Source: Pseudomonadota bacterium
GTDB lineage: Bacteria; Desulfobacterota; Desulfobacteria; Desulfobacterales; JBDRRP01
Reading direction: 5' to 3'
Length of the DNA stretch: 20,000 bases
Assembly (NCBI GenBank): GCA_043825735.1
Contig: JBDRRP010000045.1
Location: forward strand, 50,693-70,692
Below, piece after piece: positions 8,811 through 16,904 of this stretch (position 1 is the stretch's first letter; each line of letters starts with the position of its first letter). The translations under genes and the position numbers were made by a program. Under the pieces are notes generated by a model. It did no database searches. It saw only the letters and a program-made list of their open reading frames with translations, and was not told the DNA's origin.

Positions 8811-9110
8811 TTAGTTGAGCACGCGTGTGCCGAAGACTTCGAATCGCGAGGCGGGGTGGCGTTTGGCCAGTGATGAAGCGGCCCACTGGGTTTTCAGGCG
8901 ATCGAGAAAGGATGACGGGTCCGCCAAATCCTGGCCGCAGGCCCGGCAAAATGCCGGATAGTCCATGGGCCGCACCTGAAGCAGGTTGGATGCCCTGCCG
9001 TAAAGCGGCGCCGAACGGTTGAAAAACAAATCGTTCATCATTCGGGTGCTGGATCCGGCCAGAATCAAGAGTGCCCCCGACGGCATCGAATGATCCAGCC
9101 ATTTTTGCAG
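8811..9110 (-). pseudogene. internally deleted remnant of the ATPase/DUF234 gene
   Basis: Translates to two pieces of the 14074-15342 protein (LQKWLDHSMPSG...DPSSF joined to LDRLKTQWAAS...TRVLN). Walker A and Walker B are missing. Confidence 0.88.
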
Positions 9111-9138
9111 ACGGGCACTTTGACTGTTGTTATTCATG

Positions 9139-9548
9139 TGCACGAAGGGCGTGGCAAAAGCATCTGCCGCTCAGGCCGCGTGGATCGACTCGCCGGTGTC
9201 AATGCCGACCCGGTGGGGCGTCTTTTCAACGGTGACCGGGTAGGCCCAGGTCACCGCCCCGGTGGGGTTTCGAAACAAAAAGGTCATGTGCCGCTGCAAG
9301 TCGTCGAGAATGGCGATCACGGTTTCCCGCGGCAGGTCAAGGGCGCCGGCGACATCGTCCGGCGTTACGGGCCGGCCGTAGCGCGGCAGTTCGCGCACCA
9401 CGAAATGGTGGACCCGGCGATGGCCGGCCGTCATAAACCGCAAATTGCGCCCGATTTTCAGTTTGCCTTTTTCGCTCTGTTTTTCCCAAAGTATCGGCGG
9501 CACACCGATCATGGACTTCCACAGCTCCGCCATCAGCTTGTTGGACAT
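9139..9548 (-). pseudogene. truncated paralog of the MerB-like selenoprotein
   Basis: 125 aa closely similar to 15820-16197, same UGA at 9171-9173 followed by AADAFATPFV. A deletion then removes the SECIS 3' arm and the C-terminal half. Confidence 0.85.
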
Positions 9549-9666: not shown

Positions 9667-9697
9667 GGGATAGGGTGTGAACCTGTACACGGGTCAA
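9667..9697 (-). promoter_or_regulatory. copy of 19-bp-spacer promoter (TTGACC-N19-TATCCC)
   Basis: Conserved island shared with 16336-16366 while the neighbouring leader sequence has diverged. Confidence 0.55.
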
Positions 9698-14073: not shown

Positions 14074-15342
14074 TTAGTTGAAAACGCGGGTGTCGAAGAC
14101 TTCAAATCGCGGGGCAGGATGGCGCTTGGCCATGGATGAAGCGGCCCATTTGCTTTTCAGACGATCGAGAATCGCTTTGGATTCGCCGGCGGTCAGTTTT
14201 TTGAACTTCACTTCCGCCGCCATAAGGCGTGACGGGTTGTCCGGGTCCGGGGCGACCATGTCGATTTCCAGATCACGTTCCCAATAACGCGCCGCGCCAG
14301 GATAACGGCTGCGGCAATAGGCTTCAAAGACCCACGAGGCATGCTCGTGGATGAGTCGGTGCTTTTGCTCCGGCGGGTATGATGCCCACCGGCTCTGATG
14401 GGGCGAAAACACTCCGAACCAGAAACGCATGGCCGGATCCTCGATCTGGTAGAGAATTTTTCGAGTCGAGCGGACGCTTTCCCCATAGGGCAACTCACGG
14501 GTCAGGATGGATGCGTCCATTAATTGCTGAAAAAGCCGAGACAGGTTGGTCTGCGCCGTATTAAGCCGGAGGGCGATTTCCGAAGGCCTGTGGGCGCCCC
14601 GGCCGATGGCCTCCAGCACCGCCAGAGCGTTGAGCCCTCCGACACCCTCATCTCGCAAGAGACGCAGCGGTTCGTTTTCCATGTACGGGGCAAAATCGAA
14701 GTACAAGTCTTCGACAAAATCCACGACATCGCCGCCGGGGTCGACGAACTCCCAGTATTTTGGGATCCCCCCGACACAGGCGAATTTTTCAAAGGATGCC
14801 GGGTCCGCCAAATCCTGGCCGCAGGCCCGGCAAAACGCCGGATAGTCCATGGGCCGCACCTGAAGCAGTTTGGATGCCCTGCCGTAAAGCGGCGCCGAAC
14901 GGTTGAGAAACAAATCGTTCATCATTCGGGTGCTGGATCCGGCCAGAATCAAGAGTGCCCCCGACGGCATCGAATGATCCAGCCATTTTTGCAGGCGGCT
15001 CGGCAAAGAAGGATCAACGGCCGTCAAGTAAGGGAACTCGTCGATGCATAGCACCCAGGGCCGCTGCTGCAAAGACAGCAACTCCAGCAATTCGGCCCAC
15101 GTTTTGGGCGTAATTTCCGTTTCCAGATGCCCCTTCAAATCATCGAACACCTGCCTGAGCTGCAGATCGCTTTGGGCCTCGATCGCCTGACTGTAGAGAC
15201 CGCCCCGGATATTAAGCCAATGTCTTACCAGACGGGTCTTGCCCACGCGCCGACGGCCGTAGACGACCAATAGACCACCGCGCTTGGCAGCCGATTCCAA
15301 TTCCAGCAATTCCCGGTCCCGGTTTACGAATTCAAGCTTCAT
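14074..15342 (-). CDS. archaeal-type ATPase (ATPase_2) with winged helix and DUF234-like PD-(D/E)XK C-terminus
   Basis: Start probably ATG 15342 (MKLEFVNRDREL). YGRRRVGKT, IDEFPYL, AGSS, PLYGR, GGIPKY, EIDMV..AEVKF. Confidence 0.9.
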   Translation of the reverse strand: MKLEFVNRDRELLELESAAKRGGLLVVYGRRRVGKTRLVRHWLNIRGGLYSQAIEAQSDLQLRQVFDDLKGHLETEITPKTWAELLELLSLQQRPWVLCIDEFPYLTAVDPSLPSRLQKWLDHSMPSGALLILAGSSTRMMNDLFLNRSAPLYGRASKLLQVRPMDYPAFCRACGQDLADPASFEKFACVGGIPKYWEFVDPGGDVVDFVEDLYFDFAPYMENEPLRLLRDEGVGGLNALAVLEAIGRGAHRPSEIALRLNTAQTNLSRLFQQLMDASILTRELPYGESVRSTRKILYQIEDPAMRFWFGVFSPHQSRWASYPPEQKHRLIHEHASWVFEAYCRSRYPGAARYWERDLEIDMVAPDPDNPSRLMAAEVKFKKLTAGESKAILDRLKSKWAASSMAKRHPAPRFEVFDTRVFN

Positions 15343-15389
15343 GGAAAATACCATGCCGGAAAACATTATGCTTTTCAAGCATAATGTTT
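15343..15389 (-). promoter_or_regulatory. operator palindrome overlapping the putative -35 of the ATPase gene
   Basis: Perfect 13-bp IR AAACATTATGCTT-N3-AAGCATAATGTTT (15361-15389). Minus-strand TTGAAA at its centre ends 30 nt before ATG 15342. Confidence 0.6.
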
Positions 15390-15441
15390 CTGTAGCATAA
15401 AGATCAGCTTGGTTGCAGATGGACACTTTGACTTTTGTTAT

Positions 15442-16197
15442 TCATGCCGGATCGTCGAAGCCAAACAGGGTGCTCTGCATTTTTCGGGTAACGTAGGCCA
15501 CTTGGGAAAGGGTGAAGTAGGCGCCACGGATGCGATGGGAGCGGCGTCGGTGCTGACGGGCGTGTTCTTCTGACCAGAAGAAGACGCAGACCTTTCAGAA
15601 TCCGTCGATGATGCTCGGCGCGTCTAGGGTGGCCAGGTCCAGGTCCGGCACAAAGGCCATCGGATCGGCCCCGGCGGTGCGGACGGCATAGTTCAGATCG
15701 CTGTCGATCTGGATTTCCAGCGGCGCTCGGCAGCAGGCGCACTCGCTTTGCACGCGGATGGACAGATCCTCGTTTCGCAGGCGCCCTTGCACGAAGGGCG
15801 TGGCAAAGACATCGGCCGCTCAGGCCGCGTGGATGGACTCGCCGGTGTCAAAGTCGATCCTATGGGGCGTCTTTTCCACGGTGACCGGGTAGGCCCAGGT
15901 CACCGCCCCGCCCGGGTTTCGAAACAAAAAGGTCATGTGCCGCTGCAAGTCGTCGAGAATGCTGATCACGGTTTCCCGTGACAGATCAAGGGCGCCGGCG
16001 ATATCGTCCGGCGTTACGGGCCGGCCGTAGCGCGGCAGTTCGCGGACCACGAAATGGTGGACCCGGCGGTGACCGGCCGTCATGAACCGGAGGTTCCGCC
16101 CGATTTTTTGTTTTCCCTTTTCGATCTGCTTTTCCCAGAGCACCGGCGGCACACCGATCATGAACTTCCACAGCCCCGCCATAAGCTTGTTGGACAT
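15442..16197 (-). CDS. MerB-like organometallic lyase, probable selenoprotein with two Sec (U126, U201), 251 aa
   Basis: A single frame interrupted only by UGA at 15820-15822 and 15595-15597. N-terminal HTH, AYPVT..TPHR, IHAA-U-AAD (compare MerB YAWCALD), SECACC, GF-U-KVCVFFWSEE (compare MerB SFCCHVHFFAS). GGGAGG RBS. A hairpin follows each UGA. Confidence 0.85.
15560..15587 (-). promoter_or_regulatory. SECIS-like hairpin for the second UGA
   Basis: mRNA GCGU-C-UUCUUCU-GGUC-AGAAGAA-C-ACGC, starting 7 nt after the UGA. Confidence 0.75.
15782..15800 (-). promoter_or_regulatory. SECIS-like hairpin for the first UGA
   Basis: mRNA CGCCCUU-CGUGC-AAGGGCG, starting 19 nt after the UGA. G-containing apical loop. 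Confidence 0.7.
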
Positions 16198-16335
16198 TTT
16201 TCCTCCCCCTTTTCAAGGTCAAACCGTTTTCCGGGAAACGGCAAATAAATTTGACAATCCTTATATTCGGCGATCAATCGGAGACTGTTCTTGACTCCCC
16301 GCGGATTGTCCCGGCAGTAGCGCATCGTAATGCCC

Positions 16336-16366
16336 AGGATAGGGAGTGAACCTATAGACGGGTCAA
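16336..16366 (-). promoter_or_regulatory. promoter TTGACC-N19-TATCCT (MerR-type spacing) upstream of the MerB-like gene
   Basis: 19-nt spacer, imperfect dyad TGACCC-N7-GGTTCA, conserved in the second copy. Confidence 0.6.
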
Positions 16367-16373
16367 GCAGTAT

Positions 16374-16904
16374 TTACTTTTTGGGTTTCGGAACATTCAG
16401 GTTGAGCATGCGGTGGACGCGGCCGGAAAAGAAAGCGCGGTAGGTTTTGGCAAGTGGCACGGCATATCCGGCGGCGGCCGCCAGATTGAAACCGGCCTCG
16501 ATGTAGATGCCGAACCGGATGGAAAAAACCGTGGCCAGGGGCGCCCAGACCAGGAGGCTCAGGGCGATGCAGACCCAGGCCCAGCGCTCCCGGCGGCGGA
16601 AGGGAATCAGGGACAGGAAAAAAAGGCACACGCACCAACCGGCGACGACGGCGCCCAGAACGGAAAAGATCCAGGGGTGGTAGCGGGCCACGGCCTCGTG
16701 AAGATCGGCGCGTGCCCACAGCGCCTTGGCGATGGCGCTGTTATAGGCGGCAAACAGCGGCCCGGTTGAACCGAATGCCATGAATATGCCGAAGGCGATT
16801 CCCAGGCCGCTGTAAACCACCATCCACCATTGCCAGAGCCGAAAACGCTTTGGACCGCCGTGCTGCAATTCACCCATTGTCCACCTGTGATATATTCTTT
16901 TCAC
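16374..16904 (-). CDS. hypothetical integral membrane protein (about 4 TM)
   Basis: Four hydrophobic segments and a PFRRRERWAW loop. Start uncertain (GTG 16904 or ATG 16877). Confidence 0.7.
   Translation of the reverse strand: MKRIYHRWTMGELQHGGPKRFRLWQWWMVVYSGLGIAFGIFMAFGSTGPLFAAYNSAIAKALWARADLHEAVARYHPWIFSVLGAVVAGWCVCLFFLSLIPFRRRERWAWVCIALSLLVWAPLATVFSIRFGIYIEAGFNLAAAAGYAVPLAKTYRAFFSGRVHRMLNLNVPKPKK

Follow-up and report, generated by a model that had tools for sequence, protein, structure and literature searches.

The locus considered here raises the question of whether a reading frame broken by two in-frame TGA codons is a single gene and, if so, how it is read and what its product may do. 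The frame lies on the minus strand of a 20,000-nucleotide stretch (hereafter the window) taken from contig JBDRRP010000045.1 (positions 50,693 to 70,692) of the assembly GCA_043825735.1, a Pseudomonadota bacterium placed by GTDB in the order Desulfobacterales of the Desulfobacterota. An initial annotation, made from the letters alone, had proposed that it encodes a relative of the organomercurial lyase MerB with selenocysteine (Sec) at both catalytic positions. The results below point to a predicted selenoprotein with the MerB fold, belonging to a large family of its own in anaerobes.

One gene interrupted by two TGA codons

The translation bears out the frame as it had been described: the minus strand from 16197 to 15442 is one frame interrupted by two in-frame TGAs, the open reading frames of 125 aa (15820-16197) and 65 aa (15595-15792) are listed as claimed, and all the peptide strings quoted in the initial annotation are found in the translation. 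This is one intact hidden gene, with a full-length product of about 28.6 kDa and the site contexts AA-U-A (site 1) and GF-U-K (site 2), and its start codon occupies the same aligned position in the relatives. The TGAs are present in the reads and do not come from an assembly slip, since three contig records of run X1, which is possibly from the same sample as the assembly, tile 15380-16260 with 0 differing letters, record 1 spanning both TGAs. The coordinates of all the features are collected in Table 1.

A third TGA ends the gene. No hairpin follows it (-5.0 kcal/mol, z +0.96), and the terminators of 80 relatives at the same place are TGA in 38, TAA in 24 and TAG in 18. Read-through of this codon into the downstream ATPase gene was considered and rejected, as no hairpin follows the TGA, the ATPase fusion appears in the alignment only in the window's own row, and the relatives stop within about 30 residues.

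Relationship to MerB and the putative active site

In the protein searches Cys stood in for Sec. The read-through protein matched the Pfam MerB family PF03243 with 46.7 bits (cut-off 27, E 3.8e-12) over residues 106-239, and since this match crosses both TGAs the frame is more than a product of chance. Among the solved structures only MerB matched (3f2g, E 8e-07). The alignment to solved MerB places U126 on Cys96 (YAWCALD), D129 on Asp99, C153 on Cys117 and U201 on Cys159 (SFCCHVHFF), which agrees with the earlier proposal that the two UGAs fall on Cys96 and Cys159, that Asp is kept at +3 and that the Cys117 site lies inside the string CACC. The UxxC suggested as an added family motif did not hold, C204 being present in only 4 of the 22 aligned members, most of which have Ser there.

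The AlphaFold2 model, built with an alignment of 22 family members, reached a predicted local distance difference test (pLDDT) score of 88.6 and a predicted template modelling (pTM) score of 0.86. All 11 Foldseek matches of this model at E ≤ 0.001 were MerB or MerB2, the best with E 4.7e-13, and the target-normalised template modelling (TM) scores for the ten crystal-structure chains were 0.75-0.80. U126, D129, C153 and U201 are invariant in 22 of 22 aligned members, and the MerB core as a whole is conserved in the family, beyond the ligand positions. The window gene is the only PF03243 gene in this genome. We infer that the active site consists of Sec126, Asp129 and Sec201, the counterpart of Cys96, Asp99 and Cys159 of MerB. 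Out of the proposed di-selenocysteine organometallic lyase, the MerB fold and the Sec codons at both catalytic sites thereby stand; the lyase activity itself would follow by analogy with MerB.

Selenocysteine decoding and conservation in relatives

The genome possesses selA (617.6 bits), two selB, two selD and two tRNA-Sec genes with the anticodon TCA, and both selD genes carry an in-frame TGA, being selenoproteins themselves; the Sec machinery that the initial annotation had asked to be confirmed is therefore all present. The machinery is doubled (contigs C62, C107, C88 and C73, all outside the window) with a single selA, and on C107 one selB directly follows a tRNA-Sec. The contamination of the genome is given as 3.69%, and a second organism may be the source of the doubled Sec genes.

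A search of 185,579 species genomes found 429 loci encoding a relative, and at least 525 further relatives are present in metagenome contigs; a full-length or nearly full-length copy is carried by 21 of 401 sampled genomes of the class. Relatives were compared at the DNA level in 184 cases, comprising 24 from whole-genome searches, 80 species-genome loci and 80 metagenome contigs. TGA stands at both sites in 24/24, 80/80 and 80/80 of these, i.e. in 184/184 overall. Coding conservation past both TGAs likewise holds in 184/184, to the C-terminus and down to 33% identity, with the family's strongest motif, FFWSEE[HD]A, located 3′ of the second TGA. All 160 species-genome and metagenome relatives have an Asp codon at +3, and 159 of these 160 retain the codon for Cys153.

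The interchange of UGA and Cys looked for in homologues is found at each site in other relatives. Nine proteins have Cys at site 1 and a stop at site 2 (P0018, P0032, P0091, P0094, P0098, P0100, P0103, P0105 and P0121), two combine Ser at site 1 with Cys at site 2 (P0026 and P0092), and one has Cys at both sites (P0233). The comparison shows both in-frame UGAs to be positions at which Sec is predicted to be inserted via SelB and tRNA-Sec, and the two-Sec protein is very probably made. Against this has to be set that two metatranscriptome runs of the study to which run X1 belongs gave no match to the stretch, which is evidence neither way, and none of the sequence holders listed for the stretch is on record as RNA.

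The two SECIS-like hairpins

Each TGA is followed by a hairpin resembling a selenocysteine insertion sequence (SECIS), and the upper stem and loop of hairpin 2 are formed by the codons of the invariant FFWSEE motif. Both were compared in 24 relatives (22 distinct rows), which are kin to each other, with controls in which the pairing partners were slid. Paired cells amount to 88.8% in hairpin 1 against at most 64.6% in the slid controls, and to 85.1% in hairpin 2 against at most 61.2%. Compensatory changes are seen in hairpin 1 at the pair 24-40 (UA 12, GC 8, GU 2) and in hairpin 2 at the pairs 16-33 (UA 13, CG 6) and 22-27 (UA 19, CG 3). The 7-bp upper stem of hairpin 2 is paired in nearly all 22 distinct rows, the lower 4 pairs being weak, and its GGUC loop is found in 23 of the 24 relatives. 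In the three relatives that have Arg (CGG) in place of Trp, UCA is changed to UCG as well, and the closing pair is thereby re-formed. In its GGUC loop and its spacing the element presumably matches the type of bacterial SECIS known from E. coli fdhF.

Several observations speak against the hairpins. Their folding energies are ordinary for the composition (z -0.40 for hairpin 1 and -0.71 for hairpin 2), so the support for them is purely comparative; one slid control of hairpin 2 outscores it on covariation (0.217 vs 0.155); and the protein and RNA constraints on hairpin 2 are inseparable because its stem doubles as the FFWSEE codons. A scan of 15300-16400 against Rfam, with E up to 10, returned no SECIS family and 4 chance-level matches. 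On the comparative evidence, the decoding of each UGA would be assisted by a separate hairpin lying a few codons 3′ of it. The protein would then be among the few enzymes in which two selenocysteines are catalytic; each would have a SECIS to itself, and one of the two elements would lie in the codons of the most conserved motif.

Other readings of the TGA codons

The two TGAs could also be ordinary stops, only the 125-residue N-terminal product being made and the downstream part being a dead remnant or small genes. This product is the one that gene callers predict. A profile search of 1.84 billion representatives gave 1152 proteins at E ≤ 0.001, and among the best 150 of them 93 stop directly before Sec1, at profile position 125, and 11 before Sec2, at position 200, several being 73-residue pieces spanning 128-200; the database thus holds fragments, and the expectation that standard annotation would split the gene proved right. 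A decayed second copy in the window (see below) also keeps just this N-terminal part, with a ratio of non-synonymous to synonymous differences (pN/pS) of 0.17. However, the downstream 125 codons are conserved in all the DNA-level relatives with FFWSEE standing after the second TGA, Cys occurs at both sites in relatives, the hairpins are conserved and the Sec machinery is present, which makes this reading very improbable. Translation of TGA as tryptophan, or as some other standard amino acid, was suggested by the fetched full-length database proteins, 17 of 21 of which have Trp at both sites. Despite that, TGG was found at either site in 0/184 DNA-level relatives, and the closest DNA-level relatives of the Trp-bearing proteins, up to 83% identical to them, carry TGA, so the Trp of the database is most likely a TGA translated under an alternative code by the gene caller. 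The gene itself terminates in TGA, as do 38 of the 80 relatives, and the taxa are ordinary code-11 bacteria with tRNA-Sec, leaving a tryptophan reading with hardly any probability at all.

Comparison with MerB, SaoL and other MerB-like families

The MerB comparison set consisted of EC 4.99.1.2, the enzyme of plasmid R831b, the PDB entries 3F0O, 3F2F, 3F2G and 1S6L, and MerB2 (5C17). The window protein shares with MerB the fold, a PF03243 score above the threshold, and the aligned three catalytic positions and structural Cys117. It differs in having Sec codons in place of both catalytic Cys, in an identity of only about 21%, in about 40 extra N-terminal residues, and in the genetic setting, as its gene is not part of a merR/T/P/A operon and the predicted regulator is of another MerR-family or of a MarR-family type. 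Its scores against the NCBIfam MerB equivalogs are far under the cut-offs (40.7 vs 200 for NF033555 and 44.2 vs 193 for NF009710). None of the 301 genomes sampled in this phylum has a canonical MerB that exceeds the cut-off.

SaoL ('selenocysteine-assisted organometallic lyase') is, like the predicted window protein, a selenoprotein that has the MerB fold and occurs in anaerobes; it too has Sec where MerB has Cys159, and its database entries end at the UGA. The SaoL preprint describes a protein that keeps Cys at the position of Cys96, contains only one Sec, within a CU dipeptide, and is encoded in a nine-gene SAO locus (bioRxiv 10.1101/2022.07.06.499078). A genuine SaoL from our sample agrees with this description, with MCAID at site 1 and SCU at site 2, so that the account of SaoL as a two-Sec family in the initial annotation was wrong. 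The window protein, by contrast, has Sec codons at both sites, and Phe or Tyr stands ahead of the second one; its length is 251 residues, as against about 213 in SaoL, and its gene stands alone. The SaoL model NF040728 gives the window protein 37.2 bits, with a cut-off of 140, over residues 68-166 only. SaoL over the cut-off was detected in 1 of the 401 sampled genomes and the window family in 21.

A quick maximum-likelihood tree of 76 rows, to be read as unrooted and in which SaoL forms a long branch, parts the window clade from SaoL, the Cys/Cys forms and a further family (family B, see below) by a branch with a Shimodaira-Hasegawa-like approximate likelihood ratio test (SH-aLRT) value of 99. 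The suggestion of a stand-alone family distinct from SaoL is upheld both by this separation and by the score below the SaoL cut-off, and the family is distinct from mer operons as well. The window clade comprises 42 Sec/Sec, 8 Cys/Sec, 3 Ser/Cys and 9 degenerate forms, and the Cys-bearing forms are nested among the Sec/Sec ones.

Family B is a second two-Sec MerB-like family, seen in other genomes (L134-L143, e.g. L138:379-1074 on the minus strand), with proteins of about 232-255 residues. Its motifs, WF[GA]Q-U-[AG]FE and PY[AS]-U-STMNFFRSEEH, were seen in 10/10 loci fetched, and it scores 87.4 bits with PF03243 and 48.4 bits with the SaoL model (cut-off 140). Family B-type matches occur in about 26 of the 401 sampled genomes, not all of which were checked. 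Family B is like the window family in having Sec codons at both catalytic positions and a GGUC hairpin over FFRSEEH after the second TGA, and in occurring in the same bacterial class; it differs in having only 22% identity to the window protein, in Glu for Asp at +3 and in lacking the N-terminal extension, and it forms a separate clade with a support of 100. It was not found in this genome.

Another relative, L147 (G450:C171:6520-7020), has the canonical YAWCAVD with Cys at site 1 and a TGA at the Cys159 site (AYT-U-PLINFFCSVEH), and scores 80.8 bits with the MerB model. It seems that several MerB lineages have acquired Sec at their second catalytic position.

Promoter and candidate regulators

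The gene is preceded by a promoter-like block (Table 1) which is conserved 5′ of the decayed second copy. Promoters activated by MerR-family proteins are characterised by an over-long spacer of 19-20 nt between -35 and -10, with the operator inside it. When 1 mismatch was allowed, TTGACCYGNCTANNGNTTCAY was found at 3 sites in the 6.8-Mb genome and at 0 in the reversed control: before the window gene, before the decayed copy, and before an operon of SRPBCC and MerR-family genes on another contig. The regulator of the latter operon is 47% identical to the MerR-family regulators adjoining relatives of the window gene. Two further genomes (G018 and G260) each have the motif at just two places, one preceding the MerB-like gene and the other the MerR homologue; three others (G351, G129 and G084) have neither the motif nor the MerR homologue. 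In 3/3 motif-bearing genomes the operon of the MerR homologue thus has this motif in its promoter too. The corresponding regular expression was found upstream of the gene in 8 of 80 relatives, and these account for 8 of the 10 matches in all the 1.66 Mb scanned.

The comparison shows what is predicted to be an operator common to the gene and an unlinked MerR-family regulator, and we infer that the gene is probably induced by the MerR homologue via the promoter at 16336-16366. This 19-nt-spacer promoter pattern, tying the gene to the unlinked regulator operon, is new. The MerR homologue has no conserved cysteines and is under every NCBIfam metal-sensor cut-off, and with no conserved Cys its signal need not be a metal ion. 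The operon of the SRPBCC protein (Polyketide_cyc2) and the MerR-family regulator (G000:C40:87926-89255; L126 687-2070), in which the MerR homologue occupies 88740-89255, lies behind the 19-nt-spacer motif, and the SRPBCC protein may be a ligand-handling partner in the regulon.

Among the 80 loci the upstream same-strand neighbour is of the MarR family in 20 and of the MerR family in 18, and nothing else exceeds 10. A related TTCAT variant, judged by eye, stands before merR in 13 of the 18 merR-adjacent loci. The 20 MarR-adjacent loci (relatives L048-L119) have another conserved promoter before marR, with TTGAC and a near-perfect palindrome, TGTTTTTAGAT/GCTAAAAACA; this is a likely MarR operator, in which case a branch of the family would be switched in a different way.

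Proposed function and its alternatives

The net amount of methylmercury in sediments, groundwater and paddies is set by its breakdown no less than by its formation, and the anaerobes dominating such habitats are mostly without merB and merA. The genome carries hgcA (429 bits, cut-off 275), located outside the window; no SAO, mer or hgc gene is present in the window, as had been noted, the other SAO genes having been looked at in the window only. Canonical MerB is absent from the genome. A strong HgcA match was found in 17 of 21 carriers of the window family and in 173 of 380 non-carriers in the class sample (odds ratio 5.1, p 0.0026).

By analogy with MerB, the product would be a 251-residue cytoplasmic MerB-fold enzyme made by Sec insertion at two UGAs, the third UGA terminating it; its two selenolates would grip the metal of an organometal compound, and Asp129 would protonate the carbon, whereupon the carbon-metal bond would break. 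Transcription would start from the 19-nt-spacer promoter, and a MerR-family activator sharing the operator would make expression inducible on demand and not constitutive. As MerA is lacking, thiols or selenols would have to take over the metal product, or else it would remain on the enzyme, which would then work in a low-turnover or sacrificial mode. On balance we favour, with some reserve, the full statement of a two-Sec protein with organometal lyase chemistry and MerR-type control. The leading candidate substrate is methylmercury or another organomercurial, and methylmercury as the natural substrate is a tentative suggestion. A still wider proposal would make the family the missing mer-independent methylmercury-degrading enzyme of anaerobes, dependent on selenium and switched by a dedicated MerR-type organomercurial sensor, with which mercury-methylating Desulfobacterota and their neighbours destroy their own or the community's methylmercury, the product being a Hg-selenolate or HgSe and not Hg(0); this we regard as unlikely.

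A number of results count against a role in mercury degradation. No MerA in the genome exceeds the cut-off (best 383.9 vs 454.45), and catalytic turnover on mercury appears doubtful given two putative selenolates and no MerA. When stratified by taxonomic family, 11 carriers with hgcA are observed against about 9.5 expected (15 carriers with family frequencies); the hgcA association is thus weak and mostly taxonomic, because carrier-rich families are also hgcA-rich. A tblastn search with the genome's own HgcA found no hgcA within 6 kb on either side of the gene in 80 loci. Furthermore, the MerR type without conserved Cys, the MarR type (20/80) and the SRPBCC protein in the regulon point equally to an organic or hydrophobic inducer.

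Instead of being a lyase, the two-Sec protein might bind Hg(II), methylmercury or another soft metal stoichiometrically, as a high-affinity trap or chaperone, or it might carry selenium. Bis-selenolate sites bind Hg(II) very tightly, and a site of this kind here would be expected to bind Hg more tightly than the dithiolate of MerB; MerB itself keeps hold of Hg(II) until the metal passes to a partner, the genome has neither MerA nor canonical mer genes, and expression appears inducible. A mere binder, however, would not need the proton-donor position Asp129, which is kept in 22/22 aligned members and 160/160 relatives; the conservation takes in the whole MerB core and not the ligands alone, and we consider such a role rather improbable. 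It is also conceivable that the protein is a lyase or transferase acting on some other bond (tin, lead, arsenic, cobalt-alkyl, carbon-selenium or carbon-sulfur), mercury being irrelevant. The scores far below the curated MerB equivalog cut-offs, the regulators without Hg-type cysteines, the SRPBCC hydrophobic-ligand protein in the regulon and the largely taxonomic link to hgcA all go in this direction, and the same caution has been argued for SaoL by Haft and Gwadz in their preprint (bioRxiv 10.1101/2022.07.06.499078). Hg-C protonolysis is nevertheless the only characterised chemistry of this fold and all three catalytic positions are kept, so that action on another bond seems distinctly unlikely.

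Representation in databases and in the literature

No NCBIfam model (June 2026) claims the window protein. The tables of a 2026 review (PMC13188914) contain only SaoL as a MerB-like selenoprotein and not this family, the supplements of that review being outside their scope, and the table of a 2022 review (PMC9312934) likewise contains only SaoL and no two-Sec family. The main text and one supplement of the BSepDB paper do not name the family, the supplement being without the terms MerB, alkylmercury, PF03243 and SaoL. In further full-text literature only SaoL was found; the supplements of the 2026 review and of the SaoL preprint could list the family. Being absent from the selenoprotein catalogues searched, the family is a candidate for addition to them, and, as it escapes standard annotation, it offers a concrete gene for Hg-cycling surveys that count only merB and hgcAB.

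Gene neighbourhood and the decayed second copy

Table 1 Features of the MerB-like locus and of its decayed second copy, in window coordinates.
Feature	Position	Strand	Remarks
MerB-like selenoprotein CDS (predicted)	15445..16197	minus	251 sense codons, ATG 16197-16195
UGA 1 (codon 126)	15820..15822	minus	predicted to be read as Sec126; MerB Cys96 equivalent, Asp129 at +3
UGA 2 (codon 201)	15595..15597	minus	predicted to be read as Sec201; MerB Cys159 equivalent
Terminal TGA	15442..15444	minus	true stop; no hairpin after; relatives terminate there too
Ribosome-binding site GGAGG	16202..16206	minus	~5 nt 5′ of ATG; conserved before second copy
SECIS-like hairpin 1	15782..15800	minus	CGCCCUU-CGUGC-AAGGGCG; stem begins 22 nt after U of UGA 1
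SECIS-like hairpin 2	15560..15587	minus	GCGU.UUCUUCU-GGUC-AGAAGAA.ACGC
Promoter-operator (putative)	16336..16366	minus	-35 TTGACC (16361-16366), 19-nt spacer, -10 TATCCT (16336-16341); motif TTGACCCGTCTATAGGTTCAC
Same promoter motif before decayed copy	9677..9697	minus	1 mismatch
Decayed second copy	9139..9548	minus	first 137 codons kept, incl. TGA 9171-9173

The neighbours of the gene in the window are an ATPase_2/DUF234 protein downstream and an unnamed 176-residue membrane protein upstream, and hydrolases are present too. The ATPase_2/DUF234 gene (14074-15444, minus strand) follows 15 nt after the TGA stop of the MerB-like gene, whose frame it shares. Since the relatives have other neighbours, the shared frame is probably due to chance (one in three).

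The second copy shows 85% identity to the window protein over residues 1-150 and contains 1 TGA. A deletion removed the rest of the gene, fusing the remainder to a remnant of an ATPase gene (8811-9143); the 3′ arm of hairpin 1 and most of the ATPase are gone, and the deletion junction is also found in a contig of run X1. Between the two copies pS is 0.26, and the low pN/pS suggests either that the second copy was a working paralogue during most of its existence or that the 125-residue N-terminal piece still matters.

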